From a virus: a DNA stretch of 64,000 nucleotides. Both the position numbers and the translations under genes were made by a program. Shown one piece after another: positions 384 through 56,725 of the stretch. How positions within the stretch are numbered: position 1 is the first letter of the stretch; each line of letters opens with the position of its first letter. The notes beneath the pieces were generated by a model. That model worked only from the letters and a program-made list of their open reading frames with translations, was not told where the DNA came from and searched no databases. The stretch spans positions 9,524 through 73,523 of IMG/VR virus record IMGVR_UViG_3300027758_000008. One strand, given 5' to 3'.

Positions 384-412
384 ATTTTAGCCACTGGTCT
401 AACCACTTACAA
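384..412 (-). promoter_or_regulatory. Sigma70-like portal promoter TTGTAA-17-TAAAAT with a FadR-like box (395..405) in the spacer
   Basis: Read directly from the minus strand; identical copy at 39903..39931. Confidence 0.7.
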
Positions 413-1507
413 GCCCAATCGCTTAAATACTGTCGATTCCTCTTGCTCAAGCTCGTTTAATGTGATTGTGCGGCCTGTCATATCGGTGAATTTGGATAGC
501 GATAATTTGCCATCGAGAAACAGTTTGGCCCTTGTGGTACCAAGCGATGATTCAACAAACCATCTAGGCTGTCTGCGTAACCATGCCTCGTGACTGGTGT
601 CACTTCTAACCGTTGTCGGGTCGAATGCGTCTTTGTCACGCTTGCCTCTGTACTTTGGCTTACCATCCGTGCTGGCTTCTTTCTTCTCGAATGCTTCTTT
701 TGCTGCCGGTCCTGATTTGCCGCCTATGGCAACCTGTTGGCCGGTTAACTCGAATCCTTCTGGACCGTAGATTAGTGTTGAGCGGCAGTTTGGGTGCAAC
801 GGAGGAATCGGTAACTTCGGGTCGTCAGCCTTAAATCGTTTCTTTGAGTTAGTCCGACAAATTAAACTAGTCCTGTTATCCCACACGGCGACAAATATCG
901 CCTCCTGATAGTATTTAGGATGCGCAGATACGTTAGCCCGCCTTGCCTGCTGTACGTAATGCGTGAAAGCTGTTCTGGCCAATGACTCAGCGCGGGTTTT
1001 CAGTGTACCGTCAAACTCAGCACGTATATTCTTTAGCACCTGGTTGACTGTCTCGGCGCGTGAATAGCCCTGTCGAACCATTGACATAATGCGTTGATTT
1101 CTTCCAGCGTTATTGCCAGTAATGAATTCATCCCAGAAACCAGCCTGCTTTGACTGCTCCATGACAATCATTTGCTCACCGATGAACGATAGAATCTCAT
1201 TCTTTGCCGGTGGCGTTAGCTCAGTGTTGCGCAGCATGTAACGCACCTCATACAATGCCGCCTCTTGCATATCCTTGGTGTAATCTGCCCAGCCTGAATT
1301 CAACTCGATAATGCGTTGTATGCGCTTCTCGATAGTCTCAAGCTGCTTTGGTGTGCGTGGCAAGCCGCCGTCGATGATGAGCAGCCTGATTAGCCGGTAC
1401 GTTTCCTCTAACCCTGGATAAACAGACGCGTTGATATACCCTGAATTTAACCTATCAAGGTATACCTCGTGCATTAATTGTGCGTCTAGGTTTATTGTGA
1501 TTGTCAT
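407..1507 (-). CDS. Head morphogenesis / minor capsid protein (SPP1 gp7 / Mu gpF family)
   Basis: Motifs DNRTSLIC and PPLHPNCRS; next to the portal. Confidence 0.85.
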   Translation of the reverse strand: MTITINLDAQLMHEVYLDRLNSGYINASVYPGLEETYRLIRLLIIDGGLPRTPKQLETIEKRIQRIIELNSGWADYTKDMQEAALYEVRYMLRNTELTPPAKNEILSFIGEQMIVMEQSKQAGFWDEFITGNNAGRNQRIMSMVRQGYSRAETVNQVLKNIRAEFDGTLKTRAESLARTAFTHYVQQARRANVSAHPKYYQEAIFVAVWDNRTSLICRTNSKKRFKADDPKLPIPPLHPNCRSTLIYGPEGFELTGQQVAIGGKSGPAAKEAFEKKEASTDGKPKYRGKRDKDAFDPTTVRSDTSHEAWLRRQPRWFVESSLGTTRAKLFLDGKLSLSKFTDMTGRTITLNELEQEESTVFKRLGL

Positions 1508-2967
1508 TAAAGCCCGTAATGAGTCAGGTTGAACATCTGCGCCTGAGCGATATTAATATCTACATCAAATGTGCCAGCGTCAGCGCTGATTGCAAATCGC
1601 AAGCTTGAGACACCTTCAGGAACTTCAAGCTCAACACTAAGTGTTGTTGCGTCTACGCTTACCGCTGCCTGTCTCATCATGTATACGCGGTCAACTGAAT
1701 TGACGGTAACATCGTATTGCACAAAAACACTAAGCTCACACGAGCCGCTGTTTATGGTATTACTAAACCGCATCACACACAGGTATGTGTCGCCCTCGGT
1801 AACGTTCCAACGGCTAGAGTTAATAAATAACTGGCTATTAACCCAGTTAACTTGCCATGTGTTACCTATTCCAAGCGACGTTTCTGCCAGTGACTGAGTA
1901 TTTTGATTTCCGTTAGTGGCCCAATTATTCGGCAGCCCTGCGCCGTATGTTCCAGTTGTAAAGCACCCATTCGGATTCAATATAACACTGTCAATTGTGT
2001 AATCGTCTATCCTTGGTAGTGGCGTATAGTACCTATTATTTAGGTAGTCATCTGCCAATTTGTAACCGGCTGTTTGTTCTGCTGCTGGGTCTGGATGGGT
2101 TCCATCCGATGATGCGCCACTAACCCATGCGCCGGTCGATGGGTCGGTTAACTCGTCCCATATGCCGAAGCACTTAATTCCTTTCTTCCTAGCTGTTACA
2201 TAGTCGTATAAGTTAGCCTCAAAAACATACTCGCTACGTGCAGCTGTATCATGCGGAGGAGCCATAATCATAAGAGGCTCTGAACCTATACCGGAAACAT
2301 AATCCAAACATGTAGCAATGTTATCCCTATGCTCTATAAGCGTAACGCCTGCCGCATAATCATTGGTCGCCTCCATAACAGTTACGAGCGTGCCGTCTAT
2401 ATCGGACAGCCTTGCAATCATCTGGTTTGTGTTATTACCTCCAACGCCAGCATTAGTTTTAAAAACCACTGCGCCGCCACTGTTTCTAGCGAACCATGTG
2501 CCAAAATTATTGATAGCCTCACTGATTGAGTTGCCAAACACGCATAGCTGTTCCTGCCCACTGTTCAGTTTTGTTCTGACCAAACTAGCAACCCCGCCAC
2601 TCGACTTAACTTCGTATTCGCCGTCTGCGGCCTGAACCTTGATAGAATCAATTGACGTAAATGAAACGCCTTTGCCCGAGAAATAACCAGAAGCCGTTAC
2701 AGTTGCGATTGAATCAGGCGTTGAGTAATTCCAGATTCTAGGCGTTGCGTTATCGCACTTAGCCATTGCGGTAAGGATATCGCCGTCAGTGGTGATATAT
2801 GCCAAGACGCTGCCGTTAGAGCAAACGCAATTGACAGTCGATAATTCTGAACTGAAAGTGTAGCCGGTGAAATAGGTGTGTTGTGATACTTCTTCGACAG
2901 TGTCGTCTGTTACGTATCTAAATTTAACCGCCGAGATTCTGTCAACGTTCAATGCCTGGAATGCCAT
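1507..2967 (-). CDS. Putative virion appendage: N-terminal anchor, SGNH/GDSL esterase and beta-rich C-terminal domain
   Basis: SGNH blocks VFGNSIS, NAGVGG, EATND, DGTHP; N-terminal ~125 aa similar to 33282..34802. Confidence 0.65.
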   Translation of the reverse strand: MAFQALNVDRISAVKFRYVTDDTVEEVSQHTYFTGYTFSSELSTVNCVCSNGSVLAYITTDGDILTAMAKCDNATPRIWNYSTPDSIATVTASGYFSGKGVSFTSIDSIKVQAADGEYEVKSSGGVASLVRTKLNSGQEQLCVFGNSISEAINNFGTWFARNSGGAVVFKTNAGVGGNNTNQMIARLSDIDGTLVTVMEATNDYAAGVTLIEHRDNIATCLDYVSGIGSEPLMIMAPPHDTAARSEYVFEANLYDYVTARKKGIKCFGIWDELTDPSTGAWVSGASSDGTHPDPAAEQTAGYKLADDYLNNRYYTPLPRIDDYTIDSVILNPNGCFTTGTYGAGLPNNWATNGNQNTQSLAETSLGIGNTWQVNWVNSQLFINSSRWNVTEGDTYLCVMRFSNTINSGSCELSVFVQYDVTVNSVDRVYMMRQAAVSVDATTLSVELEVPEGVSSLRFAISADAGTFDVDINIAQAQMFNLTHYGL

Positions 2968-3024
2968 GGTAAAATTCCTCTTATGCTATTGGTTAAGTTT
3001 AAAGCAATTGTCATGGCAAGTAAA

Positions 3025-4263
3025 TTAACCAAACCTCGGTGCGGCTGCTGGTTTTCTGTGCGTCATCAAATGCTCGCAAGCGTAACGCAGTGAATCAATA
3101 AAATGGTTAAACTCATCTACCGGCTTGTTAATCACTTTGCCGTCCTTATCGACCTGCCAGCAGTAGTTATTAAACTCTACCATAAATTCAACCAAATGCG
3201 CATTGACGATTATTTCAAACTCACTGAGGAAGTCTATGCCAGCGTTAATGGAGTCTTTTCCTTTCATTGCGCCACGAATGCGGATGCCTTTAGCATCAAG
3301 GTAATCGATTGACTTAGGCTCTGAGCTATCAGCCGTCGTCATGTGGCGGTGACAGTTCATTTCCTTCATCTTGCTGGCAATGGCCGAATTCTGCATACCT
3401 TTCTCGTAGAAACCGTCGTACACGTAAATTTTCTTACCCTTGACATCAATGTAAGTCTGGTTAAATGCTGACGGGTCGTTAGTGTAACCAAAGTCAAGGC
3501 CTTGGACACAGTCAAGCCCTTTAACCTCAGATTCTTTAATCAGGCGAGCCGTGGCGTTATTAAACACAAGCCCTTCTGCTGTACCCCAATTGCCAAGCGC
3601 ATATATGTTGTAATAGCGCGGATTGGTCTTTTTCTTGTTCTCCATAACCATCTTGTATTCATCGTCAATGAATGCGTTATCAAGATATGTCGTGTGAAGT
3701 GTGAAAACGCCATCTATTGGGTCATCGAAGAATACGCGCTTAATCCAGTGCTGCTCGCTGATAGGATTAAACGTCAGAATAATTTGCTTGATGTATTTAG
3801 TTTCGCCACGCAAACGCAAGTCAAGCTGCTCGAAGTCCTCTTGCGTTAGCTCCGTGGCCTCTTCGCACCATATGCCGGTAACGCCTTCGATTGACTTTAG
3901 TTTTTCAACGTCGTCTAGGCCGCTGAACATTATCTGCGAGCCGTTCTTTTTGTAGGTAATGGTTTTATCAGTCAGGTTTACGTCAAACTCTTCTGACAAA
4001 CCCCATCGGCTTATGATGTTGCGTATGAGCGTAAACACAGACCGTTTTATGGTTCGGTCAACTTTACGTATTACGAGAAAGTTATGCTTGCAGTCTGATT
4101 CTTTGAGAAGGCGATAAACGATTTTGCGTGCGACGATATGTGATTTGCCTGACCCTGCGCCACCCCATAGGATTTGGTAGCGCGACTGGTCAGTGAATGC
4201 CGGTACAAACTTAGGTGACTTCTCCTTTACGTGCTTCCTGAATTTGGCTAGGTCTATTACCAC
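3025..4263 (-). CDS. terL: Terminase large subunit, PBSX/SPP1-like (Terminase_3)
   Basis: GGAGSGKS Walker A, WCEEATE Walker B, TFNP, GLDFGYTNDP, NHFIDSLRYA. Confidence 0.95.
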   Translation of the reverse strand: MVIDLAKFRKHVKEKSPKFVPAFTDQSRYQILWGGAGSGKSHIVARKIVYRLLKESDCKHNFLVIRKVDRTIKRSVFTLIRNIISRWGLSEEFDVNLTDKTITYKKNGSQIMFSGLDDVEKLKSIEGVTGIWCEEATELTQEDFEQLDLRLRGETKYIKQIILTFNPISEQHWIKRVFFDDPIDGVFTLHTTYLDNAFIDDEYKMVMENKKKTNPRYYNIYALGNWGTAEGLVFNNATARLIKESEVKGLDCVQGLDFGYTNDPSAFNQTYIDVKGKKIYVYDGFYEKGMQNSAIASKMKEMNCHRHMTTADSSEPKSIDYLDAKGIRIRGAMKGKDSINAGIDFLSEFEIIVNAHLVEFMVEFNNYCWQVDKDGKVINKPVDEFNHFIDSLRYACEHLMTHRKPAAAPRFG

Positions 4264-4694
4264 TCATTTTCACCACTATCTATCACGCGTTCGGTTACTT
4301 CTTTCTTGTCCGCTAACCCTAAATCACGTGCAATAATATTCGGATTAAGCAGGTCTGCCGATGCGCCCTCAAACTTCTGAGCGCGGATAATTGACTCTAC
4401 ACGCGTTACGACGTCAGAAAAATCTTCGTCCTTACGCCATGAAAACCACGTCTGTTCGGTTATATCAAGAAATATACAAAGCCCCCCAATGGTCATTGCT
4501 CGCATCTTTGCCATTGGCTCATGTGAAGCTACACCTTGGAAGAATGAAACCTTATCCTCGTATAACGGGTTTTCTTCTACCCACTGGAAATATTCTTGGC
4601 AAGCTTCCCATAAAGCTTCATGACTAGCGAACAGCTTGTCTCTACCGTGCTTTGTACGTGCTTTCCAGAATTGGTTTCCTTTCGGGGCTGGCAT
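4257..4694 (-). CDS. terS: Terminase small subunit, P22 gp3-like
   Basis: PAPKGNQFW, EYFQWVEENPL, AKMRAMTIGGL and ADLLNPNIIARDLGL match P22 gp3 as I recall it; upstream of terL. Confidence 0.9.
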   Translation of the reverse strand: MPAPKGNQFWKARTKHGRDKLFASHEALWEACQEYFQWVEENPLYEDKVSFFQGVASHEPMAKMRAMTIGGLCIFLDITEQTWFSWRKDEDFSDVVTRVESIIRAQKFEGASADLLNPNIIARDLGLADKKEVTERVIDSGENEW

Positions 4695-4742
4695 ATCAAT
4701 CACCGTTAATTAATCAGTCTTAAATATACCACATGATAGGAT

Positions 4743-7004: not shown

Positions 7005-7165
7005 ACCCTACCCCCATTCTCTGCGTATTTGCGCATAAGTTCTGGATGATTGAAAATCTCAAATGCTACCTTGTGCGTTTTCAACCCAGTTACCTGCGCG
7101 ATTTTAATGTAACTCCGTGCGCCGTCTTGTAGTGCGGCGCTCACTTTACGGTAGTGTTTGTTCAT
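7001..7165 (-). CDS. Small putative HTH protein, 54 aa
   Basis: Hand-translated MNKHYRKVSAALQDGARSYIKIAQVTGLKT...; conserved in B with synonymous changes. Confidence 0.65.
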   Translation of the reverse strand: MNKHYRKVSAALQDGARSYIKIAQVTGLKTHKVAFEIFNHPELMRKYAENGGRV

Positions 7166-7566
7166 ATGAAGTCAGACCAATCATAACCAACCGGCATTTC
7201 TTCCGACATGACGATATGGCTATAAATTTCATCCATGGCGACTTGGTTAAACTTACGCTCCACCATCCCTGATGTTGACTCATCCGCGAACGACTTTTCT
7301 ACCAACTGACGCGCAAATGTATCATCTTCAATCATCGAGCCGATGACAGTGTAATCAGACACAATATGCGTATTCCCGCAGTAACGCCAGGTCAGCGTTT
7401 TCTGGTCTGCAACGCGCTCTGCCAGCTTCTCGGCGATATACCATAGATTTTCATTGCTGATGCTGTCATAAGTCATTGGCGTTGATTCTGGCTTGTCTGG
7501 TAGCTGTCTGTCGTATGCGGTTTGGTGTTGCTCGAAATTCATCTTCATTTCCTCCATTAGTTTCAC
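7162..7566 (-). CDS. Hypothetical protein (true start probably ~7548)
   Basis: ORF; homolog at 44606..44992. Confidence 0.7.
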   Translation of the reverse strand: MKLMEEMKMNFEQHQTAYDRQLPDKPESTPMTYDSISNENLWYIAEKLAERVADQKTLTWRYCGNTHIVSDYTVIGSMIEDDTFARQLVEKSFADESTSGMVERKFNQVAMDEIYSHIVMSEEMPVGYDWSDFI

Positions 7567-7568
7567 CC

Positions 7569-7604
7569 ATTATAACGGGTTAATTTTGTTTTGTGGTTTG
7601 ACCA
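7569..7604 (-). promoter_or_regulatory. FadR-like box (7594..7604) - 19 nt - TATAAT promoter
   Basis: AACTGGTCAAACCAC on the minus strand; identical at 45357..45392; followed by a GGAGG RBS. Confidence 0.75.
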
Positions 7605-7605
7605 G

Positions 7606-7809
7606 TTAGTCTAAGTCTGGAATAACTACAAATCGAACAATATAGCCGTCGCTGCGACTAAACCATTCACCTTCTACAACTTCAAAATTTCCATTTGTGA
7701 CGGTACTTCCTGTCAGTATAAAGTTATCACCGTGGGCATGATGAAAAATATCACCATGCTTTACATCGTCGTCAGGACCTAAAACTCTAGCTTTAACTTC
7801 CGGCATCAC
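7606..7809 (-). CDS. Hypothetical protein
   Basis: ORF coupled to the upstream gene. Confidence 0.6.
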   Translation of the reverse strand: MMPEVKARVLGPDDDVKHGDIFHHAHGDNFILTGSTVTNGNFEVVEGEWFSRSDGYIVRFVVIPDLD

Positions 7810-10480: not shown

Positions 10481-10666
10481 TCAAGTATGCCCTAATGAAT
10501 TTCGTTTGCAAGTACTTTTCGTTATTATTTTATCTGGTCGTACCACTTCACACTCACACCCTGGAAACCGTTCCCGCAAACTCTGCTCGATGTCGTCGGC
10601 ATCGGATAGCATGGCGAATTGGTATTTTTTGCCTTTGTAGGTCAGTTTTATTTGGTAGGGTTTCAT
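10481..10666 (-). CDS. Hypothetical protein
   Basis: Homolog at 46963..47133; marks the left edge of the replication module. Confidence 0.65.
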   Translation of the reverse strand: MKPYQIKLTYKGKKYQFAMLSDADDIEQSLRERFPGCECEVVRPDKIITKSTCKRNSLGHT

Positions 10667-14311: not shown

Positions 14312-15780
14312 AAACTAGCCTCTATTCTCTTAGCTTCTGCGTAGTCTTTTGGTCCAGGCTTCTTGCCTCCTCTGGCCATATAAACGTTGACTGCCCACCC
14401 ACTGGCATTCTTCATGCCGCGCCGCTTGCCAAGCGCTATCAAGTCACGCAATCCGTTTGCCTGCCCCTGCTCCTGTCGGGCTCGTTTTCGCTCTGCCTGT
14501 ACCGCTGCCATATCTACTTGCTCTAGCTCGCCCTCAACCTCGTTTAACTTGCGCTCTTTCTTCTCTACCGGAGCTCCGCACATTGGGCATGCGTCAACAC
14601 CAGACTTGAACACCGCGTAACACTGCCCGCACTGAGACACATTTACGTCTGGCTCGTCGTCTTTCTTTTTGCGTCTTTTTGGTTCATCTCCTGATAAAGA
14701 CCATTCACGTTTTTCACACGGCAAACCATGTTTAACTATACATCCTGCATGGTCAAGTATGACAGCCGGGTTAGGCTTCTTACGCATAGCCCTGAACACC
14801 ATCTGCAGGTATCGCGCAACAGACTGTGTAGGCCTAAGCAGTATGCAGCATTCAAGTGTACAGTCTCTGCCCACCTGCGCGGACAAATCGAAACCCTCTA
14901 TAACTAGTTCGCAATTACATAAGACCTTGTAGCGACCGTCAGCCAGCCCCATACAGGCATCTTTTATTTCGCCCTCCGTGCTTGTTCCGTCCACGTGTAT
15001 AGCCGGCACGCCTGAATCATTGAAAGCTTGTGCAGTTTGCTTGCTGTGCTTAACGTTTACGCAATAACAGACTGTGCGCAGACCGTTAGCCAATTTTTTC
15101 CAGTGACTAACCGCGTCGCCTACAATTGATGGTTTAGACATAGCGCCGGCTAACTGGTCTTTGTTGTAGTCACCGCCGGCGTTTTTAACGTCTGACAGGT
15201 CAGGGCTAACTGGGGTTGTGTAGGCGACGTAATTGGAAAGCCTACGTTGCTTTATAAGCCATGCAGTTGACTTAGCCTCTATCATTTCGTCAAATAAGTC
15301 ACCTAGCGCTTTACCGTCAAGACGCTTAGGCGTTCCGGTTAGCCCTATAACCAAAGCGCCATTGTCGCGAGCCCAATTAATGACGGTCTCGAACATGTTG
15401 CCTTTAGCCAGATGCGCCTCGTCTATAAACATGATTCGAGGCGGTGCCAGTCTCTCAAGCCTGCTGTAAACAGTACCGATGGTGCCAATCTGGACGGGTA
15501 GCTTTGATTGACGACGTCCACTAGTGATTAGGCCGTGTTCAATCTTGGCAGACCAGAAAGACTTATCGGTCTGACGTAGCAGGTTCTTTCTGTGAACCAA
15601 AAACCAAACGCTTGTATGCGGGTTTTTAGCTTGTGCCTCTTGCGTGATGTAGCCTGCAACCACGGTTTTCCCGAATGCTGGGCTGGCCACGCCCAAAACA
15701 GATTTACACCCTTTGGCCACTGCCGCGCGTAAGTTGTGCACGAATTCAGCCTGGTCCTCATATAGCTGGAATTGGCTCAT
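14308..15780 (-). CDS. Superfamily 2 DEAH helicase with C-terminal Zn finger
   Basis: SPAFGKT, IDEAH, GLTGTP, EGFD, QMVFRAMR, CxxC...CxxC. Confidence 0.9.
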   Translation of the reverse strand: MSQFQLYEDQAEFVHNLRAAVAKGCKSVLGVASPAFGKTVVAGYITQEAQAKNPHTSVWFLVHRKNLLRQTDKSFWSAKIEHGLITSGRRQSKLPVQIGTIGTVYSRLERLAPPRIMFIDEAHLAKGNMFETVINWARDNGALVIGLTGTPKRLDGKALGDLFDEMIEAKSTAWLIKQRRLSNYVAYTTPVSPDLSDVKNAGGDYNKDQLAGAMSKPSIVGDAVSHWKKLANGLRTVCYCVNVKHSKQTAQAFNDSGVPAIHVDGTSTEGEIKDACMGLADGRYKVLCNCELVIEGFDLSAQVGRDCTLECCILLRPTQSVARYLQMVFRAMRKKPNPAVILDHAGCIVKHGLPCEKREWSLSGDEPKRRKKKDDEPDVNVSQCGQCYAVFKSGVDACPMCGAPVEKKERKLNEVEGELEQVDMAAVQAERKRARQEQGQANGLRDLIALGKRRGMKNASGWAVNVYMARGGKKPGPKDYAEAKRIEASL

Positions 15781-15950
15781 TGGTTGGCCTCCAGGTAGTC
15801 AGACAGCTTTTTTACTGTGACGTAACTAGGGTTAGGCGCCTTGCCTGTTTTCACTGCAGATATAAACTGCCGCGTCATTCCTACAGACTTGGCAACAGCG
15901 CTTATATTGCGGTCACTTAGTCTCTGTTTTATTTCATCTAGTGTAAGCAT
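15777..15950 (-). CDS. Cro/XRE-like HTH protein, 57 aa (below the ORF-track cutoff)
   Basis: Hand-translated MLTLDEIKQRLSDRNISAVAKSVGMTRQFISAVKTGKAPNPSYVTVKKLSDYL; ATGA-coupled to the helicase. Confidence 0.8.
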   Translation of the reverse strand: MLTLDEIKQRLSDRNISAVAKSVGMTRQFISAVKTGKAPNPSYVTVKKLSDYLEANQ

Positions 15951-15975
15951 TGTTTAACCTTTTTGTTATTAGGTG

Positions 15976-16004
15976 TTGACACAATAAACCATAAAGCATA
16001 GGAT
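15976..16004 (+). promoter_or_regulatory. Sigma70 promoter TTGACA-17-TAGGAT
   Basis: In the divergent intergenic region; counterpart at 50256..50285. Confidence 0.75.
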
Positions 16005-16053
16005 TACAACCACTGGCTGACTTAGCCAGCAACAACCAAACGGGCTACAGAAC

Positions 16054-16911
16054 ATGATAGACGTTATTGATTACACCCAGCATGAGGGTGAACTGCCAGC
16101 AACATGCGCAGTTATTAACATGCCAAACAGTGCTTATCACACTCACCCGTCAATAAGCAAAAGCGGGTTAGATTTGATAAACCGCAGTATCGCCCACTAT
16201 GAGTACCGCACGCCGTTTGAACTTACGCGGCACATGGAGATAGGCACCGCAATACACGCCGCGCTTTTCGAGCACGAGCGATACAAGTCTGAGTATATTC
16301 TTTTGCCTAACGTGAAAGACCGACGAGCTAGCGAGTACAAGCAGGCTGTGAAAGCCGCAGGCACTAGCGAGTTGGTTTTAGTTGGTCATGAGTCAGACAA
16401 GGTAAACGGCATGTACCAAAGCGTTAGCCTAAACAAAGAAGCTATGAAGCTTCTAAGCGAAGGATACCCTGAGCTGTCAGTGTTTGCCGTATGTCAAGCA
16501 ACCGGATTGCATCTTCGCTGCCGTTTCGACTTCCTAACGCGCGGCGGAGTCGCTGTTGACCTAAAGAAAACGCAAGACGTTCGCTATGACAAGTTCCAGC
16601 GCTCTATAGGGTCTTACCGTTATCACGTACAGGATGCGTTTTACATGTATGTAGCGGCACTTGCCGGAATCAACGTGAAAGAGTTCAAGTTTTTGGCAGT
16701 AGAAGAGCAACCGCCGCACTCCAACAAACTATACACGCTTGATGATGAAGCTAAAGCAGTGGGTCGCCGTGAATTTAACAGGGACTTAACCGCATACGCT
16801 GAATTCAAGAAAGCCGGCGGAATTCCTGCAGGTCTTGTTCAGGAATCAGAGTTAATGAGCCTGCCAGTATGGGCGTTAGACGACGAAGCAGACGCGGAGT
16901 ATCAACTATGA
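16054..16911 (+). CDS. PD-(D/E)xK exonuclease, RecE/ExoVIII-like
   Basis: ISKSGLD, IGTAIH, RCRFD, VDLKKT, YHVQDAFY. Confidence 0.85.
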   Translation: MIDVIDYTQHEGELPATCAVINMPNSAYHTHPSISKSGLDLINRSIAHYEYRTPFELTRHMEIGTAIHAALFEHERYKSEYILLPNVKDRRASEYKQAVKAAGTSELVLVGHESDKVNGMYQSVSLNKEAMKLLSEGYPELSVFAVCQATGLHLRCRFDFLTRGGVAVDLKKTQDVRYDKFQRSIGSYRYHVQDAFYMYVAALAGINVKEFKFLAVEEQPPHSNKLYTLDDEAKAVGRREFNRDLTAYAEFKKAGGIPAGLVQESELMSLPVWALDDEADAEYQL

Positions 16912-17486
16912 ATGATTTAAGTTTCACTATTAAACCAAAGTCTGACCAGTTAAACGCAGATGACCTTATAGCTGGACCTATCACGGTTACCGTTCAGGAT
17001 GTTGTTGTTTATGAGTCCCCAGACCAGCCTGTTAGTGTTGTTATAGGTAACGGCTATCATCCTTACAAGCCTTGTAAATCTATGCGGCGATTGATGATAG
17101 CAGTGTGGGGTAAGCACGACAGCGACTGGATTGGTCAGAGTATGACGCTGTTTAACGATCCGTCTGTTACCTGGGCGGGCGCTGCAGTGGGCGGAATTCG
17201 CATCAGCCACATGACTGGCTTAACCAAGCCTTTCAGCGTTGCGCTGACTGCTACGCGAGGCAAACGCAAGCCTTACACTGTGGAGCCGTTACAGTTGCCG
17301 GCGTACCCTGCTGAGTCGTTCAACAAGAACAAATCGCAATGGGCGCAATTGATTGGTGAAGGCAAGTACACACCACAGCAAATCATTCAAGGTTGCCAGC
17401 AGAAGGGTTTGTTAACCGAAGAAATGAAAACAGAAATTTTAAACATGGCTCAACCGGAGCCGCAAACAGATGATGAGGATATGTAA
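16908..17486 (+). CDS. Conserved phage protein, probable recombination partner of the exonuclease
   Basis: KSDQLNADDL and PCKSMRR motifs; lies between exonuclease and SSB (function inferred from position). Confidence 0.6.
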   Translation: MNDLSFTIKPKSDQLNADDLIAGPITVTVQDVVVYESPDQPVSVVIGNGYHPYKPCKSMRRLMIAVWGKHDSDWIGQSMTLFNDPSVTWAGAAVGGIRISHMTGLTKPFSVALTATRGKRKPYTVEPLQLPAYPAESFNKNKSQWAQLIGEGKYTPQQIIQGCQQKGLLTEEMKTEILNMAQPEPQTDDEDM

Positions 17487-17488
17487 TC

Positions 17489-17797
17489 ATGGCTAAACGA
17501 TTAGTAGTTAAAACAGGCGAGTACACAAACCAGCAAGGTGAGACAAAGGGCGAATACACTAAAATTGGTGTAATTTTAAATAACCAAAACGGCGACTTTA
17601 TTTTGATGGACCCGACCATCAATTTAGCTGGCGTGCTACTTAAACAGAATGCTCTAGCCGCCAAGCAAGGTAAGCAGCAAAGCGACTCTGTTATGGTCAG
17701 CGTATTCGAGGACCAACCTCAACAAAACGCACCGCAGCAACAGCCGCAAGGTGGATACCAGCAACAACCCAGCCCTAGCGGTGGCGCTCCGTTCTAA
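17489..17797 (+). CDS. Putative single-stranded DNA-binding protein
   Basis: Beta-rich N-terminus and Q/G-rich tail ending PF. Confidence 0.6.
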   Translation: MAKRLVVKTGEYTNQQGETKGEYTKIGVILNNQNGDFILMDPTINLAGVLLKQNALAAKQGKQQSDSVMVSVFEDQPQQNAPQQQPQGGYQQQPSPSGGAPF

Positions 17798-17830
17798 TAA
17801 GGCAAGCCGGCTCAACAGGGCCGGCTCCAC

Positions 17831-17866
17831 TGGTCAAACCACCTTGGCGCGTAGAGATGGTATATT
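17831..17866 (+). promoter_or_regulatory. FadR-like box (17831..17841) - 19 nt - extended -10 TGGTATATT
   Basis: Identical at 54886..54921; followed by GGAGG. Confidence 0.75.
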
Positions 17867-17888
17867 GTAGGAAATGGAGGGGGATAAA

Positions 17889-18596
17889 ATGATTGAAATA
17901 AAAAACAGATTTACAGGGGGAATTATCCACAGTGGTGATTTCCAAAGCGTTAAAGAATGTTTGCTTGATGCTATTAAAAATGACGCAAACCTACGGGGCG
18001 CAAACCTACGGGGCGCAGACCTACGGTACGCAAACCTAGAGGACGCAAACCTACGGGGCGCAGACCTACGGTACGCAAACCTAGAGGACGCAAACCTACT
18101 GGGCGCAAACCTACTGGACGCAGACCTAGGGGACGCAGACCTACGGTACGCAGACCTACTGGGCGCAAACCTACGGTACGCAGACCTAGGGGACGCAGAC
18201 CTAGGGGGCGCAAACCTAGGGGGCGCAAACCTAGGGGACGCAGACCTAGGGGGCGCAAACCTAGGGGGCGCAAACCTACGGTACGCAAACCTACGGGGCG
18301 CAGACCTACGGTACGCAAACCTAGGGGACGCAGACCTACGTTGGTGTGCTGGCAATAAATGCGAAATCAAATCACTATGGTTTAGTGATGTATACCCAAT
18401 AACCTATACATCGGAATATATGCAAATTGGCTGTGAGCGTCACAAAATTGCCGATTGGTGGGAATTTGACGACAAGCGCATTTTAAAAATGGATGGTAAA
18501 ACTGCATTGAAGTTTTGGCGGGAAAATAAAGATTTGATTAAGCAGATTGTTGACGCCAATCCAGCCAAGCCTACAGGCAAGGAGTCTGACAAATGA
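17889..18596 (+). CDS. Pentapeptide repeat protein
   Basis: About 24 A(N/D)Lxx repeats; C-terminal QIGCERH domain. Confidence 0.9.
   Translation: MIEIKNRFTGGIIHSGDFQSVKECLLDAIKNDANLRGANLRGADLRYANLEDANLRGADLRYANLEDANLLGANLLDADLGDADLRYADLLGANLRYADLGDADLGGANLGGANLGDADLGGANLGGANLRYANLRGADLRYANLGDADLRWCAGNKCEIKSLWFSDVYPITYTSEYMQIGCERHKIADWWEFDDKRILKMDGKTALKFWRENKDLIKQIVDANPAKPTGKESDK
17982..18340 (+). repeat. 15-bp tandem coding repeat, GCA(A/G)ACCTA core
   Basis: Directly visible near-perfect 15-mers. Confidence 0.95.
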
Positions 18597-18913
18597 CAAA
18601 ACAACAACTACTAGCGCTGTTGCGTGAGGCGCTATCTGACTGTATTTGCAAGGGTATAAGCATTAACGAGTATATCAAAGAGGTAGAGCGCACAAACCAC
18701 GTAGGTGATTTGGAGTTGCCGGCGCTTTCATCTGACACCCAATGCGAACATGAATATGTCGTTAGATATGACCACGGCACATGCAAAAAGTGCGGGTGGA
18801 TATTTACTGACGGCGGCTGGGGAACTGCTAAACGCATGTGGTTTAAAAGCCTTGATGATGCAAAGTTCTATAAGCAGCATGGTCGACTACCACAACCACC
18901 GGAGGGAGTATGA
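18593..18913 (+). CDS. Hypothetical Zn-binding protein
   Basis: CEH...CKKCG; homolog at 55128..55481. Confidence 0.7.
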   Translation: MTKQQLLALLREALSDCICKGISINEYIKEVERTNHVGDLELPALSSDTQCEHEYVVRYDHGTCKKCGWIFTDGGWGTAKRMWFKSLDDAKFYKQHGRLPQPPEGV

Positions 18914-19200
18914 GTGAGTTAAAGCAAATGTTAAGTCTTCAATTAAGACTGGCGAGAAAGTCGGGGGCGAATGCTATGGCTGATTTACTTGGCAACTCGA
19001 AAAGAGAAATCGAGCGGCTAGAATCACAGGTTAGGCAAATGTCAGAGTTATGCTTGACGGTTGAGGAAGTAAATTCAATCAAAGCCGATGCTGTGCGTGA
19101 GGCTGCTAAAGAAATTAACTGGACTGCACTTACAAAGCCGCAGCAGGCAAAGGACGCGCTTGTTTATCTGGCGAACAAATTGGAGAAGGGCGAGTTATGA
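18910..19200 (+). CDS. Hypothetical coiled-coil protein
   Basis: ATGA-coupled ORF; shares KADAVREA and KLExGEL with 55478..55771. Confidence 0.65.
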   Translation: MSELKQMLSLQLRLARKSGANAMADLLGNSKREIERLESQVRQMSELCLTVEEVNSIKADAVREAAKEINWTALTKPQQAKDALVYLANKLEKGEL

Positions 19201-19493
19201 AAACCTGCGAATACCTGCGAAAGCGGATGCTGAATGAGTTGGTAACAATTCATGGCCCTAATTGCTGCGAGTACGCTGACATTGATGATGTAATCGAATT
19301 CATCCTCAGCCGCGACAAAGACCTTGCTGTATCTGTTTCTGAGTTCGTAAGCGCAACAGGAAGTAAAATCAAGGCCGCCGAGAAGTTAGGATGCAGCCGA
19401 AACACGATTTTGCGCTATGAAGATGACACAGATTGCAAATACCACCACGTTTACAATGGCCGATTGTTTACGGCTAAGGGTAGCGCGCAGTGA
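19197..19493 (+). CDS. NinH-like HTH protein
   Basis: AAEKLGCSRNTILRYEDD...HHVYNG resembles lambda NinH. Confidence 0.65.
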   Translation: MKTCEYLRKRMLNELVTIHGPNCCEYADIDDVIEFILSRDKDLAVSVSEFVSATGSKIKAAEKLGCSRNTILRYEDDTDCKYHHVYNGRLFTAKGSAQ

Positions 19494-19669
19494 GTCAGGG
19501 TGTCTTATTCGGATACAGTGAAACATATTACGAGATACACGCGTATCTAATTGATGTCTGCTCGTATTCTAACGAGGCTGCACATGATTACATTTTAGAG
19601 GCTTGCCCGCATGTGCTGGCGCATGATTTTGTGCCAGCGCCCGTTACAAGTTTGGAGTATGAAGAATGA
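19490..19669 (+). CDS. Hypothetical protein, 59 aa
   Basis: Hand-translated; overlaps its neighbours by GTGA/ATGA. Confidence 0.55.
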   Translation: MSQGVLFGYSETYYEIHAYLIDVCSYSNEAAHDYILEACPHVLAHDFVPAPVTSLEYEE

Positions 19670-19851
19670 CCAAAAACACAGGCAAAGCATCGTCGCCAGG
19701 ATACCGAAAAGTCGCGACAATATACTGCCCAATCTACGGCTACGAGATAGAGCGCACTATTTGCGAGCACGACGATGTTTGGCTTGTTGACGTTTGGGGC
19801 GTTCCGTATCGGTGGGAGTGGGTGAAATCAGTGAAGGTGTATTGGCGATGA
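19666..19851 (+). CDS. Hypothetical protein
   Basis: First 12 aa identical to 56162..56365. Confidence 0.6.
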   Translation: MTKNTGKASSPGYRKVATIYCPIYGYEIERTICEHDDVWLVDVWGVPYRWEWVKSVKVYWR

Positions 19852-20117
19852 ATATGGAGCCGTTTAATTTTTGCATACAATGGATGGTGTACGATTATTT
19901 GCCAACCCTGAAAACCGGAGACTTCCTACCTGGTCAACTTTGCATGCCCGATAGGATAGGCGTTGAGCGAAAGACGTATCGAGAAGTGTTACGCGTTCTG
20001 GATTTCCATGGAGTTATAAGTGTCAAGCATGGCAAACCCACAAAGTTCATAAGCCTTAACAAGCCTGGACTGCTGTACGTCATGGAGCGTAAAGGCTTAA
20101 CTGGTCAAACCACATAA
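19848..20117 (+). CDS. FadR-like (GntR family) winged-helix DNA-binding domain only, 89 aa
   Basis: GDFLP...IGVERKTYREVLRVLDFHGVISVKHGKPTK aligns by eye with FadR GTILP...[30 protein letters not shown]; no effector domain. Confidence 0.8.
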   Translation: MNMEPFNFCIQWMVYDYLPTLKTGDFLPGQLCMPDRIGVERKTYREVLRVLDFHGVISVKHGKPTKFISLNKPGLLYVMERKGLTGQTT

Positions 20118-20137
20118 TCGAAAAATGGTGGTATATT
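20102..20137 (+). promoter_or_regulatory. FadR-like box (20102..20112) - 19 nt - extended -10 TGGTATATT
   Basis: Counterpart at 56690..56725. Confidence 0.75.
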
Positions 20138-20185
20138 AACCACACTAACAACACCGCAGCAGTATCGCGGATAACGGAGATACTC

Positions 20186-20362
20186 ATGCGTAGAAGAAAT
20201 ATAGAGGCACCTTTTGTACAAATTAGCAAGAATGCTAAGATTTTTGAGTGCGGCATTTTGGTCGCTATTGTTCTTACTGTTTTTGCCTTTGCTGTTTGCT
20301 CTGTCGGGCCAATGATTATTGGTGATTCACTACCGGAAGCAACCAAGGCAATCACAGAATAG
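20186..20362 (+). CDS. Small single-TM protein, 58 aa
   Basis: Hand-translated MRRRNIEAPFVQ...; GGAG RBS; homolog at 57362..57496. Confidence 0.65.
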   Translation: MRRRNIEAPFVQISKNAKIFECGILVAIVLTVFAFAVCSVGPMIIGDSLPEATKAITE

Positions 20363-20369
20363 TTTCAAC

Positions 20370-20450
20370 GCCACCGGCAGTCACGCATAATTTAACTGTT
20401 AGCGCAGTCGCGATGTGTGGCTACCTCAAACCGGTGGCTCCATTTTTGGA
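20370..20450 (+). ncRNA. Candidate structured intergenic RNA element
   Basis: Nested stems GCCACCGG/CCGGTGGC, AGTCACGCAT/ATGTGTGGCT, ACTG/CAGT; conserved at 57940..58020. Confidence 0.5.
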
Positions 20451-20456
20451 GGGAAT

Positions 20457-21080
20457 ATGATTCACAGCGTAGAAGACAAAACACAAAAAGAACTTGTCGA
20501 GATTGTCAAGATTCAGATGGAGGAATACGAGAAGTTATTAAAGACTGAAAAGCAAACCGGAGCAATGCTGAACGAAGCGCTGGAGGCTCTCAAAGCAGCA
20601 GAGCGTGAGCGGGATGATTTGGAGAAACGACTATCAATTTACGAAAGTAAGGATAATCAATATGCGAATAAATTAAAAAGAATGCTGAAACTGCAAGCGC
20701 AGCTACACAAAAAGCAAGGGGCCGAGTCTCTTGGAGTGTTATTTGATAGCGCATTGTCAGAGATTGAAGCGTTAGAAAAGCGCGAAAAAGCAGTAGATAT
20801 AGAACGGTATGTATTATCTTACTGCCTAAATTTCATTAAAGATTTCGCAACCCATGATTCTGAGAGCAAAGACGCTGCTTTTTTACGACTGAAAAACACT
20901 ATTAATGACAGCCATGTCAGAGCTAATGAGCTCTTAAACAAATTCGCCATTGAGCAGCAGATTAAAGGAGCAAAAGCAGCAGGAAGCAAGTTAATTCAAA
21001 GTCATGAAGGACAAAAGAAGCAATGGTTTGATGAAGTCTTTATTGGTCAACTACGCCAACAACTAAACGGGGGTGAGTGA
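20457..21080 (+). CDS. Hypothetical coiled-coil protein
   Basis: Start MIHSVEDK after GGAGG; both ends shared with 58027..58440. Confidence 0.7.
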   Translation: MIHSVEDKTQKELVEIVKIQMEEYEKLLKTEKQTGAMLNEALEALKAAERERDDLEKRLSIYESKDNQYANKLKRMLKLQAQLHKKQGAESLGVLFDSALSEIEALEKREKAVDIERYVLSYCLNFIKDFATHDSESKDAAFLRLKNTINDSHVRANELLNKFAIEQQIKGAKAAGSKLIQSHEGQKKQWFDEVFIGQLRQQLNGGE

Positions 21081-21202
21081 TGATTCTAACACGCTGGCTA
21101 AACGGCTGGACAATCGAAAACATAGCAGCAAAGCACGGCATACGCGTTGAAACTGTTGTGGCTTATTTGCGGGTTCGTAGTGGGGAGTGGGTGAGCCGGT
21201 AA
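21080..21202 (+). CDS. Tiny HTH-like protein, 40 aa
   Basis: Hand-translated MILTRWLNGWTIENIAAKHGIRVETV...; conserved from 58440. Confidence 0.6.
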   Translation: MILTRWLNGWTIENIAAKHGIRVETVVAYLRVRSGEWVSR

Positions 21203-21203
21203 T

Positions 21204-35570: not shown

Positions 35571-35581
35571 AGCTGTCTCAC

Positions 35582-35617
35582 TGGTTAGACCACTTGTTAC
35601 GTACAGTTTACTATAAT
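35582..35617 (+). promoter_or_regulatory. FadR-like box (TGGTTAGACCA, 35582..35592) - 19 nt - TATAAT
   Basis: Upstream of the antisense cassette. Confidence 0.75.
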
Positions 35618-35649: not shown

Positions 35650-35799
35650 ATGATTGAATCAATAGAGCATGCAAGGCTATTGTACAGAAATGAATACCGC
35701 CTTTGCGCTGAAGTTCTCAGGCTGCCAATTAAGCGTTGCGAGAAAAGAGCACAGGCGGCTTACTTCAAGGCGCTAGGCTACAAAGTGAGGGTTAAGTGA
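35650..35799 (+). CDS. Hypothetical protein, 49 aa (antisense cassette gene 1)
   Basis: Hand-translated; purine-rich RBS. Confidence 0.55.
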   Translation: MIESIEHARLLYRNEYRLCAEVLRLPIKRCEKRAQAAYFKALGYKVRVK

Positions 35800-36161
35800 T
35801 GAATACGCTAACATTAAGGTCATACGAGTGTACTTTAGATATTCAACGCGAGCAGGGCGTGACGCTGGATGCATTTTCCCACTCTAGTGTGCTAATCGAC
35901 CCTCATCGCTACCACCTTGAATTTGAAACAGAGGATACAGAAAGATTTGAACTTGGGGAGAAGTGGGATGTTGCCATTATTGAATATCGCGACCTTAAAG
36001 CATCAAACCCGGCGCTAGCTATTAACGAAGCGCAGAGGTTTGTTTATTCTGGAGCAACATACCACGGAACATTTATCGTTCAACATAAGTGGGAGCACGG
36101 AGTTGAAATGGTTTGCGAAGGTGAGCTTATAGGTGTGATGGAGGGCATTGGTGATGAGTGA
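35799..36161 (+). CDS. Hypothetical protein (antisense cassette gene 2)
   Basis: Coupled ORF. Confidence 0.6.
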   Translation: MNTLTLRSYECTLDIQREQGVTLDAFSHSSVLIDPHRYHLEFETEDTERFELGEKWDVAIIEYRDLKASNPALAINEAQRFVYSGATYHGTFIVQHKWEHGVEMVCEGELIGVMEGIGDE

Positions 36162-36315
36162 AGAAGATTACGAATACATATTCCGTGATAGGCACGAATC
36201 AAGCATTCCGTATATTGACGCGGGGGATTTGGATGATATACGCATTGACGGTAGTTTTTCACTTGGTGAGCTTGAGCGGCTTGTGTGGGCATTAAAGGAT
36301 AGGGAGGGCAAGTGA
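36154..36315 (+). CDS. Hypothetical acidic protein, 53 aa (antisense cassette gene 3)
   Basis: Hand-translated; GGAGG RBS. Confidence 0.55.
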   Translation: MSEEDYEYIFRDRHESSIPYIDAGDLDDIRIDGSFSLGELERLVWALKDREGK

Positions 36316-36617
36316 TGATTAAAGAAACAGCAGTAAACGGCCCGTCATTTGTAAGTCGCTGCGGTGGCGGTCATGGCGGTGCGTGGATAAGCACAAGCGG
36401 CGGGAGCGCTGGATCATCTAGCTTTGGCATCAAAAGCCTTGAAGTTGACACGCGGAAGGGGGTAAGCGTTCCGTACTGGGAAAAGCGCGTCAAGCAGATT
36501 GGAAAAGGTAAGCGGCATTATTTTTATATTGACAAAATGTGGCACTACATTGAGCTTGATGAAGTCTTGCCGCCACTTATTCATTACAATGTCAGAATAA
36601 CAAAAAGCCCCGCGTAA
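36312..36617 (+). CDS. Hypothetical protein (antisense cassette gene 4)
   Basis: Coupled ORF with GGAGG RBS. Confidence 0.6.
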   Translation: MMIKETAVNGPSFVSRCGGGHGGAWISTSGGSAGSSSFGIKSLEVDTRKGVSVPYWEKRVKQIGKGKRHYFYIDKMWHYIELDEVLPPLIHYNVRITKSPA

Positions 36618-39902: not shown

Positions 39903-39931
39903 ATTTTAGCCACTGGTCTAACCACTTACAA
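39903..39931 (-). promoter_or_regulatory. Portal promoter TTGTAA-17-TAAAAT with the box (39914..39924) in the spacer
   Basis: Identical to 384..412. Confidence 0.7.
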
Positions 39932-45356: not shown

Positions 45357-45392
45357 ATTATAACGGGTTAATTTTGTTTTGTGGTTTGACCA
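45357..45392 (-). promoter_or_regulatory. FadR-like box (45382..45392) - 19 nt - TATAAT
   Basis: Identical to 7569..7604. Confidence 0.75.
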
Positions 45393-45393
45393 G

Positions 45394-45585
45394 TTAGTCG
45401 TCGCACCAAGCCTCGACATCTTCCCATTCGCCGTCTTGAATATCCCCTTTACTCATTATGTTGCCAACAATATCTGTACCAAAGTCTTCTAGGTCATTTT
45501 GAAACTCGTCGAATTCCTCCTCTGTCATATCTACCACTTTTGAGTACCTGATTATTTCTGTCGCCGTAATTCTTACTTTCATCAC
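45394..45585 (-). CDS. Small very acidic protein
   Basis: D/E-rich ORF. Confidence 0.6.
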   Translation of the reverse strand: MMKVRITATEIIRYSKVVDMTEEEFDEFQNDLEDFGTDIVGNIMSKGDIQDGEWEDVEAWCDD

Positions 45586-54716: not shown

Positions 54717-54925
54717 CTGTGCCAGATGCTGACCAAGAAGTTCAAACATGGTTTGAACTTACCGTTTATAACCTGGCTATGCAGATAGTGAAGGCGCCCA
54801 CAGAGAAAAGAAAAGAACTAGCAGAAATGGTAGATCCGCAATGGCGAGATGATGTTTTGCCATTAGCTAGGAAGTTAGTCGCCACTGGTCAAACCACCTT
54901 GGCGCGTAGAGATGGTATATTGTAG
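54662..54925 (+). CDS. Hypothetical protein
   Basis: ORF overlapping the box promoter. Confidence 0.55.
   Translation: MGRIEQSNQIDDIFEGKLAVPDADQEVQTWFELTVYNLAMQIVKAPTEKRKELAEMVDPQWRDDVLPLARKLVATGQTTLARRDGIL
54886..54921 (+). promoter_or_regulatory. FadR-like box (54886..54896) - 19 nt - TATATT
   Basis: Identical to 17831..17866. Confidence 0.75.
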
Positions 54926-54942
54926 GAAATGGAGGGGAAATT

Positions 54943-55127: not shown

Positions 55128-55481
55128 ATGACAAAACAACAACTACTAGCGCTGTTGCGTGAGGCGTTCAATATGGGCTATGAATCAAGCAGCCGATATC
55201 ATTGCGACATTGCAGGAGATTTAATGAACGACCATGGTTTTATTGACTTGGTAGAACACACAAACCGCGTAGGTGATTTGGAGTTGCCTGTGCTTTCATC
55301 TGACACCCAATGCGAGCATGAATATGTCACTGGATATGACCATGGCACATGCAAAAAATGCGGATGGATATTCACTGACGGCGGATGGGGAATTGCTAAA
55401 CGAATGTGGTTTAAAAGCCTTGATGATGCAAAGTTCTATAAGCAGCATGGTCGACTACCACAACCACCGGAGGGAGTATGA
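55128..55481 (+). CDS. Hypothetical Zn-binding protein (homolog of 18593..18913)
   Basis: Shared ends, different middle. Confidence 0.7.
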   Translation: MTKQQLLALLREAFNMGYESSSRYHCDIAGDLMNDHGFIDLVEHTNRVGDLELPVLSSDTQCEHEYVTGYDHGTCKKCGWIFTDGGWGIAKRMWFKSLDDAKFYKQHGRLPQPPEGV

Positions 55482-55771
55482 GTGAGTTAAAGCCGTGCCC
55501 GTTTTGTGAGGGGAAAGCAAGATTTGAAAGGATTGGAAATGCAAGGCGTTCGACGGTTGTGGTTTGCGAGGATTGCGGCTGTAGGCATGAATCAGGGTTT
55601 GTCGGACATATGACATACGCTGGATGGAACAACCGCCCACACGAAAACAAACTCAAAGCCGATGCTGTGCGTGAGGCCATAGGTAGTGTGTCATACAAGG
55701 GTGATACTCAGTATGACGTTTTGCGCCAGCTTGAGGAATACGCCGACAAGCTTGAAAGGGGTGAGTTATGA
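55478..55771 (+). CDS. Lar-like restriction alleviation protein
   Basis: ELKPCPFC...CEDCG...WNNR. Confidence 0.7.
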   Translation: MSELKPCPFCEGKARFERIGNARRSTVVVCEDCGCRHESGFVGHMTYAGWNNRPHENKLKADAVREAIGSVSYKGDTQYDVLRQLEEYADKLERGEL

Positions 55772-56705
55772 AAATCATATCATCAAAAGTAGATTACCCG
55801 AACATGACCTGTGAAGAGATAGTTGCAAGTGGGATTTCTCTATCAGGTGATGCGCTGGAGTTGTTTATGCATAATGCAAAAGAAAGCGATGCTGACGAAT
55901 TGACAGAGTTAAAGGAATCTGTGCACGAGGCGTTATCAACCATTATGCTTGCCGTATCAGAATTGGAGGGCGAGCTATGACACGCGACTGGGTTAAAAAC
56001 CAACTTATCGCCATCGCCAAGACCAACGGAGCTACTCAGAATCAAGCTGAGAGCATCGCCAACCCATTAGCGACTAAGTGGGAGCATAGCCAAATAAAAG
56101 GCACTGACAAGCTTTTTAAAGAGGCTATCAAGCAAGCCAAGAAACTAAGTAAGGCAAAGAAATGACCAAAAACACAGGCAAAGCATCGTCGCCAGGATTA
56201 ATCGCCTTGCTTGAGCGTAATGGTGTAAGGCCACTAAGCGGAAGCACTGAAAACATAGCAATCGTCAAGACAAGTGAATTAGCGCTTTCTAAATTTAGCG
56301 GGCTTTGCGGTGATGGTAAGTTAAGCCTTGTGAATATAGGATGGATTAAAAATGAAATTAACTGATTTAATTGGTCAGCACGTCGAATCGGTAAGTTGGA
56401 ATGACTTGGACCTGCTGAGAAGTCACGAGCCGTTGATTTTCACTGACAGGAATTCAATTGACCTGATAGCGGAATGGGCTGAGCACAACAAAAGGAAATT
56501 TAAAGCTGTTGTCGGAAAGTATGGCTTTAAAAGATATGCAGTTTTCCTTGTAAAGAAAACAAAAAGAAAACACCCATGGCACGAGCCACAAAGGGTTAGT
56601 TGTGACTTTTTGGAGAATCAGCTATTTTCATATCAGGGTAAGGGTATTCTTACGGCCAGTGAGTTTACCGATAAAATGAAAGGCTTAACTGGTCAAACCA
56701 CATAA
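55768..56705 (+). other. Four coupled hypothetical genes (55768..55980, 55977..56165, 56162..56365, 56352..56705)
   Basis: Overlapping ORFs; the last ends KGLTGQTT like 19848..20117. Confidence 0.6.
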
Positions 56706-56725
56706 TCGAAAAATGGTGGTATAGT
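56690..56725 (+). promoter_or_regulatory. FadR-like box (56690..56700) - 19 nt - TATAGT
   Basis: Counterpart of 20102..20137. Confidence 0.75.

Follow-up and report, generated by a model that had tools for sequence, protein, structure and literature searches.

Which protein reads an operator-like box that is repeated over the genome of a virus, and what does it do to the genes that follow? The question is raised by a stretch of 64,000 nucleotides (nt) of the IMG/VR virus record IMGVR_UViG_3300027758_000008, positions 9,524 to 73,523, which was analysed as a whole and is referred to here as the window. The box is a 15-mer, MACTGGT-N3-ACCAC (M being A or C), with the core TGGT-N3-ACCA. It belongs to a second class of phage promoters, which possess a -10 hexamer of the sigma-70 type, often TGn-extended, no -35 hexamer, and a FadR-type dyad of 15-17 base pairs (bp) near -37. 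With a probability that we put at about 60%, the boxes are the upstream activator sites of this class and their most likely binder is a dimer of the host FadR. At most of its non-early promoters the phage, a marine one, thus has a site of the type used by FadR, a bacterial fatty-acid sensor, instead of a -35 hexamer, and its late, lysis-region and accessory genes are probably tied in this way to a lipid regulator of the host.

The box and its distance to the -10 hexamer

The window contains 10 matches to the 15-mer, against none in 100 dinucleotide-preserving shuffles, and 11 matches to the core (shuffle mean 0.80, maximum 3). The whole 73.5 kb record has 12 box sites, whereas the reversed control pattern is absent from it. 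All ten boxes listed in an initial annotation of this DNA were recovered at their coordinates. They do not represent ten promoters. The record consists of two related phage genomes in tandem, genome a and genome b, so that the 10 matches correspond to six distinct promoter positions, four of them paired across the genome copies (392/39911, 7593/45381, 17828/54883 and 20099/56687) and two single (31502 and 35579). An eleventh core site, at 10532, was missing from that list.

The distance from the box to the -10 hexamer is fixed. At five of the six distinct positions TAnnnT starts exactly 18 nt past the 15-mer, without a -35 hexamer. The chance of TAnnnT at one given offset is about 0.02-0.03 by our own arithmetic, so this agreement is far beyond chance. 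Counted by copies, 8 of the 10 boxes in the window are followed at this distance by TATAAT, TATATT, TATAGT or TATTGT, which bears out the eight -35-less promoters of the initial annotation; its spacing of 19 nt, counted from the ACCA core, equals 18 nt counted from the 15-mer. A TGG extension precedes the -10 hexamer in five of these eight copies. Where a -35 hexamer would be expected stands ACCACn, the right box half, which agrees with TTGACA at 2-3 of 6 positions (ACCACA at 7593, 3 of 6). A sigma-70 scan of 15500-21300 called none of the box promoters, though it called the canonical TTGACA-17-TAGGAT at 15976-16004 (plus strand), among the divergent early genes of genome a. As the early region is served by this ordinary sigma-70 promoter, the box promoters are regarded as a separate class.

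The same geometry is kept in the IMG/VR relatives. A set of 46 distinct boxes was collected from the record and its relatives (G000-G005, G000 being the record), from the more distant G010 and from seven further IMG/VR loci; the latter are biased, as they were found by a pattern demanding a -10 hexamer, while the sites within whole records are unbiased. TAnnnT was present at offset 18 in 21 boxes, at offset 19 in 9 and at offset 20 in 3. Taken over offsets 17-20 it was found in 31 of the 46 boxes, against 7 of 46 on the opposite side of the box, and the conservation of the spacing in relatives is thereby confirmed. Such fixed spacing points to promoter function rather than titration. The complete genome G002 (39.4 kb) possesses three core promoters and a ATCTGGTC-type site only, and is devoid of the 392, 31502 and 35579 sites. 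The complete genome G010 (44.8 kb) contains at least 12 boxes; three of its four fully palindromic boxes, ACTGGT-N3-ACCAGT, have a -10 hexamer on one side, facing small open reading frames (ORFs) of the opposite strand.

Related boxes are also present in cultured phages. Alteromonas phage XX1924 shows the same gene layout, with boxes AACTGGTCnGAnnTGTT at equivalent positions: one heads the leftward terminase block, and others precede the tail tube gene and plus-strand cassettes. The window boxes have the left half AACTGGTC, and so do the XX1924 boxes at these positions; boxes with this left half were also found in Alteromonas phage PB15. As both phages are in culture, the idea is testable at the bench now. 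In Pseudoalteromonas phage Pq0, Idiomarinaceae phage 1N2-2, Vibrio phage PGA and Aeromonas phage 62AhydR11PP, left-half boxes occurred at the level of the reversed control.

The box AACTGGTCAAACCAC at 7593-7607 (minus strand, genome a; -10 TATAAT at 7569-7574) heads a leftward operon of a methyltransferase gene, the small and large terminase genes and head genes, and is the late or packaging promoter. The first gene after it lies at 7162-7566, followed by the small terminase at 4257-4703 and the large terminase at 3025-4263. Its counterpart in genome b, at 45381-45395 (minus strand; -10 TATAAT at 45357-45362), lies in repeat D16, which is 96% identical. Two more pairs head rightward small-gene operons. 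The box CACTGGTCAAACCAC at 17828-17842 (plus strand, genome a) with TGG-TATATT, the -10 being at 17861-17866, precedes the gene 17874-18596 and a run of small genes whose last member encodes a FadR-like protein, called here mini-FadR; in genome b it lies at 54883-54897 (plus strand) with -10 TATATT at 54916-54921. A second copy of AACTGGTCAAACCAC, at 20099-20113 (plus strand, genome a; TGG-TATATT, -10 at 20132-20137), is followed by the genes 20186-20362 (58 amino acids) and 20415-21080 (221 amino acids), and its counterpart in genome b is at 56687-56701 (plus strand; -10 TATAGT at 56720-56725). The assignment of the boxes to accessory operons in the initial annotation was too narrow, as the late operon is headed by a box too.

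The two single boxes head plus-strand inserts within the minus-strand structural block. At 31502-31516 (plus strand) AACTGGTCAAACCAC occurs again, with TGG-TATTGT and the -10 at 31535-31540. It is flanked by the major tail gene 31051-31467 (minus strand) and by 31550-31948. After the genome a copy of this box, which lies beyond the window, come a ribosome-binding-like stretch and an ATG; this sequence is absent in genome b. The box CACTGGTTAGACCAC at 35579-35593 (plus strand; -10 TATAAT at 35612-35617) precedes a plus-strand cassette (35796-36161 and 36312-36617) set in the minus-strand head gene block. The sixth position has no -10 hexamer at the fixed spacing: the box CACTGGTCTAACCAC at 392-406 (plus strand) has the head-morphogenesis gene 407-1507 on one side and the portal gene on the other, and its genome b counterpart, equally without the -10, is at 39911-39925 (plus strand). 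The extra core site ATCTGGTCGTACCAC at 10532-10546 (plus strand), in the early-left gene array, also possesses no -10. It is kept in G001, G002, G003 and G005, is degenerate in genome b (around 47002), and agrees at 14 of 15 positions with the E. coli fadBA operator probe of PMC4259882 (Table 2), read on its lower strand.

In genome a the mini-FadR gene ends within the box at 20099, which supplies its final codons (LTGQTT-stop), and in genome b the box at 56687 does the same for an ORF of 117 amino acids which is unrelated to mini-FadR. The two proteins share the C-terminal ...GLTGQTT-stop. As the upstream ORF ends inside the box in both genomes, the unit of box and -10 hexamer behaves as a conserved module junction.

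Likeness to FadR sites and a FadR-like head

The sequence of the boxes supports their assignment as operators of the type read by GntR regulators of the FadR subfamily, and PMC2602784 gives TGGT-N3-ACCA as the core of the FadR consensus. A matrix was built from the 7 validated E. coli sites printed in PMC4259882 (training scores 16.7-21.9 bits). With this matrix XX1924 gave 9 matches of at least 12 bits, where its shuffles gave 1.0 on average and 4 at most, and its best scores (21.7, 17.8, 17.8 and 16.3) are in the range of the training sites; G010 gave 12 (shuffle mean 1.35, maximum 6).

The promoter layout resembles that of fabA and fabB of gamma-proteobacteria (E. coli, Shewanella, Vibrio), in which a FadR-type 17-bp site lies over the -35 region, a good -35 hexamer is absent and TAnnnT stands at a fixed distance. 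In Table 2 of PMC4537474 the probes of E. coli fabA and fabB and of Shewanella fabA show a 17-mer, 18 nt and TAnnnT. A strict pattern found the FadR-type 17-mer upstream of fabA in 9 of 21 FadR-positive genomes, with TAnnnT after 18 nt in 8 of the 9, and inspection by eye revealed a degenerate form of this layout in more fabA regions. The spacing from the 17-mer to the -10 hexamer is 16-17 nt in G010 and 17-18 nt in XX1924. The phage promoters differ from fabA and fabB in that at least 6 of them occur per genome; the window variant is more symmetric (TGGT/ACCA), and by eye no relative of the FabR palindrome (AGCGTACA..TGTT.GCT) was seen in the phage spacers. Two of the 21 FadR-positive genomes, G420 (L180) and G449 (L183), have a sequence fitting the 15-mer pattern of the window, AACTGGTT(T/C)AACCAC, directly beside the canonical fabA site. 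It overlaps that site by 2 nt, and a tandem operator is possible from this arrangement.

FadR is common in the candidate host order taken as a whole (the order of G196), where it scored above the curated cut-off in 219 of 301 sampled genomes; of 400 genomes sampled from the class, 2 had it.

Genome a encodes a FadR-like head of its own. Mini-FadR (19848-20117, plus strand) is a winged-helix protein of 89 amino acids which corresponds to FadR residues 25-83 and possesses no effector domain. Each of its six best sequence matches in the PDB (phmmer, E values of about 1e-5) is a FadR; the species are Vibrio cholerae, V. alginolyticus and E. coli. The AlphaFold model has winged-helix topology with a predicted local distance difference test score (pLDDT) of 86, and its top Foldseek match is FadR of V. 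alginolyticus; the listed FadR chains show 24-33% identity, the highest among the matches. The Pfam GntR score is 20.3 bits, below the curated cut-off of 27. Compared with the FadR structures 1HW2, 1H9T, 4P9U and 5DV5, the head is aligned at residues 25-83, while the domain for acyl-CoA binding and dimerisation (FadR_C/FCD) is present in FadR only; the alignment stops at residue 83 and the ORF ends at the box. Four of the seven FadR contact residues listed in PMC4259882 are retained (R45, T47, R49 and H65), along with G66-K67. The other three are substituted, R35 by L, T44 by E and T46 by K, and R35 is described as indispensable for FadR binding in PMC2602784.

The family to which mini-FadR belongs is small and consists of short proteins. 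Mini-FadR is absent from genome b and from all relatives examined, a family hidden Markov model run with filters off returning the genome a gene only. An exhaustive search of 1.84 billion representatives gave 35 matches, including 6 short clusters of 72-101 amino acids, and a word-based search gave one close relative. No related loci were found in viral contigs for the short clusters P0004 and P0006. In the ESM Atlas there is a GntR-only cluster of 92 amino acids whose commonest phylum is Uroviricota, which is a lead only.

What may bind the boxes

In the mechanism favoured here, a FadR-type dimer on the box near -37 would replace the -35 contact and recruit or stabilise RNA polymerase, as at fabA. 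Occupancy of the boxes would turn on the late operon, the two rightward operons and the inserted cassettes, while the early divergent promoters would stay ordinary sigma-70 promoters. The unit of box and -10 hexamer would be a portable promoter moving with accessory cassettes. FadR leaves DNA on binding long-chain acyl-CoA, and because of this the box-driven units would be weakened during fatty-acid uptake by the host, when acyl-CoA frees its FadR. Mini-FadR, made from a box-driven operon and presumably unresponsive to acyl-CoA, could occupy or block them at any lipid status. In this picture the motif with its fixed and conserved geometry, the FadR-like head and the lack of a shared phage regulator are observed, and FadR binding, activation, the sign of the regulation and control by acyl-CoA are inferred. 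A wider form of the idea is held tentatively, at somewhat short of even odds: host FadR could be the obligatory activator of nearly all non-early promoters in widespread marine siphoviruses, the cultured Alteromonas phages included, with acyl-CoA lowering late and cassette expression, mini-FadR overriding this in some, and the unit of box and -10 hexamer serving as a currency of accessory-gene exchange.

Several observations weigh against a role of FadR. The core alone does not single it out, as TGGT-N3-ACCA or TGG-N5-CCA is common to other members of the subfamily such as LldR (PMC12042122, PMC2602784). The boxes of the window and of the whole record score 8-12 bits with the E. coli matrix. 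Matches of at least 12 bits are not enriched in the record (3 against a shuffle mean of 2.3) or in G002 (1 against 1.35), and the window likewise shows no enrichment. The FadR link of the initial annotation hence fares unevenly: the sites are of the subfamily type and the boxes of relatives score as FadR sites, but the window variant itself is not enriched with the seven-site matrix. This variant has A at position 10, which is G in 7 of 7 E. coli training sites, and the end ACCAC; its spacing from 17-mer to -10 hexamer is 16 nt, against 18 in fabA and fabB. In the FadR-positive genomes G196, G356, G420 and G449 the strict box is, genome-wide, no commoner than the reversed control. Mini-FadR is without R35, T44, T46 and the C-terminal domain. 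A constitutive host factor which activates the late operon gives no obvious timing from early to late. The pointers to the host are weak, as the capsid protein has kin in many genera and the tail protein points only loosely to phages of Alteromonadales. The geometry proposed for repression is no better than chance.

A phage-encoded factor for the boxes was sought in several ways. Pfam GntR, run over six frames, gave no hit in G002, G010, G001, G004, XX1924 or PB15. By phmmer on all ORFs, the families universal to genomes a and b, G002, G010 and XX1924 were a helicase and a loose group of small ORFs only. This group was tried as a shared regulator and rejected, its members being mosaics joined via different ends. 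Among the window ORFs (50 scanned by PHROG, 20 of these by Pfam) the only members of regulator families were one helix-turn-helix protein of Cro type and one NinH-like protein. The protein of 147 amino acids encoded just upstream of the late promoter was modelled with a pLDDT of 44.6, and its family was not found in G010. A host factor is favoured because no conserved phage regulator was found.

The boxes might nevertheless be read by an activator of the phage outside the GntR family, or by a factor which appropriates sigma, the likeness to FadR sites being convergent. Mor and C of Mu, and MotA with AsiA of T4, switch on middle or late transcription in this manner; Mu Mor/C, P2 Ogr and T4 MotA are phage-encoded late activators which act at -35-less promoters. 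The present promoters are similar in that a repeated box upstream of the -10 hexamer replaces the -35 at non-early genes. They head the late operon and follow the early genes in each array, the usual place of promoters timed by a phage, and the early region has ordinary sigma-70 promoters of its own. Many small ORFs without a family could supply such a factor, and the window box scores poorly with the E. coli matrix. The box is, however, of a host-regulator type, and nothing besides the helicase is common to the five box-bearing genomes; even the 147 amino acid candidate fails in G010. Genomes a and b differ in their early genes and share identical boxes. Convergence is hard to credit where the XX1924 boxes reproduce the asymmetric fabA 17-mer together with its spacing, and one genome has itself acquired a FadR head. 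A phage activator is on this evidence rather unlikely.

It is quite improbable that another host regulator of the FadR subfamily, an LldR-, PdhR- or similar FCD-type GntR protein, binds the ACTGGT-N3-ACCAC variant. The core dyad shared within the subfamily (PMC12042122, PMC2602784) and the departure of the window variant from the E. coli matrix would suit such a protein. Yet the left half AACTGGTC is the same as in XX1924 boxes which score as FadR sites, the head borne by the phage is nearest to FadR, and the 15-mer of the window type stands beside the canonical fabA site in the two genomes named above. Highly improbable is a use of the boxes mainly as repressor operators on structural-gene promoters, or as decoys which draw FadR from host genes, though replicating phage DNA would present many FadR sites. 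Repression had been proposed in the initial annotation on the basis of a second geometry, in which a box fills the 17-nt spacer of a minus-strand promoter. The sequences are as described there: the 392/39911 box lies within TTGTAA(412-407)-17-TAAAAT(389-384) before the portal gene (9 of 12 positions matching) and the 31502 box within TTGCGT-17-TAGAAT before the major tail gene (8 of 12). The 35579 box stands about 10 nt downstream of TTGCCT-18-TAAACT. In 5.8 kb of the window, however, 5 sigma-70 matches of at least 9 of 12 were found against 7.3 expected; as matches of 8-9 of 12 are as frequent in shuffled DNA, the spacer geometry is not above chance, and 392 and 39911 are a single site in two genome copies. 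The position in XX1924 equivalent to 392 is an ordinary box promoter which drives a plus-strand cassette, so that the 392 box may more simply be read as the promoter of an empty or decayed cassette. The claim that structural promoters are turned off is not upheld by these look-alikes. The complete genome G002 does without all three sites concerned, and the fixed -10 spacing in 31 of 46 boxes is that of promoters.

Activation by host FadR has a parallel in marine cyanophages, in which sites for the host NtcA, 1-16 per genome, are spread over the genome and were proposed to drive diverse phage genes (PMC3037559). There, too, the sites are those of a metabolic sensor of the host. The NtcA system differs in its regulator, which is of the CRP/FNR type, in its signal, 2-oxoglutarate, and in its hosts, and the available text of PMC3037559 mentions no phage copy of the NtcA DNA-binding head. 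Searches of the FadR-related literature listed no paper on FadR-dependent phage promoters or on a phage mini-FadR. If FadR does act here, the lytic programme would be wired to a lipid sensor of the host and not to a timer made by the phage, which would give a testable link between the fatty-acid supply of the host and phage production in marine copiotrophs. The promoter would be a compact, portable module dependent on the host, and mini-FadR a natural case of a phage which carries only the DNA-binding head of a host regulator.

Layout of the record and surroundings of the boxes

The IMG/VR record is 73.5 kb long (G000 1-73523) and the window is its last 64 kb. Self-comparison resolved the record into two phage genomes of about 39.5 kb each, placed head-to-tail. 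Genomes a and b are mosaically related: shared blocks are 85-94% identical, and whole modules, including those for replication and the terminase, have been exchanged. The tandem may be a genuine concatemer, or two co-occurring strains may have been joined during assembly. Scans of 50 window ORFs found no integrase gene. The early regions of the two genomes differ, one encoding an HTH_3 protein and the other a Cro/YdaS-like protein, while the boxes are identical.

Relatives of the capsid protein are prophage-like loci in many unrelated proteobacterial genera, and for this reason the protein is uninformative on the host. Relatives of the tail protein belong to phages of Pseudoalteromonas, Alteromonas and Idiomarinaceae. 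Megablast with a 20 kb query gave terminase matches only, in 4 phages. An ORF of 486 amino acids at 1507-2967, between the large terminase and head-morphogenesis genes, has esterase or lipase PHROG matches, and its N-terminal part is common to an ORF of 512 amino acids at 33282-34820. The presence of this esterase/lipase-like ORF and of FadR-type boxes in the same phage may or may not be connected.

Some further features lie close to the box promoters. The TAA stop at 7606-7608, which closes the gene preceding the late promoter, reaches into the start of the box; this is so in all relatives, although the gene itself varies. A GC-rich hairpin (GCCGGC...GCCGGC) at 17795-17827, confined to genome a, stops 2 nt short of the 17828 box and may be a terminator between the early-right genes and the box-driven operon. 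The first gene of that operon, 17874-18596 (240 amino acids), contains 22 tandem copies of a 15-nt unit at 17923-18402, and its product is a five-residue repeat protein with PHROG matches of unknown function only. An inverted repeat, GTGGT-N6-ACCAC, at 20128-20143 spans the -10 hexamer of the 20099 promoter and has the same half as the box (ACCAC/GTGGT). A conserved short element was seen 3-8 nt past the -10 hexamer of many box promoters (17867-17880, 7555-7568 and 54922-54935, and in G010). Its sequence is GGAAAT or GTGAAAC in the record, against GGAAATTAA in G010, and a common start region or leader signal is hinted at.

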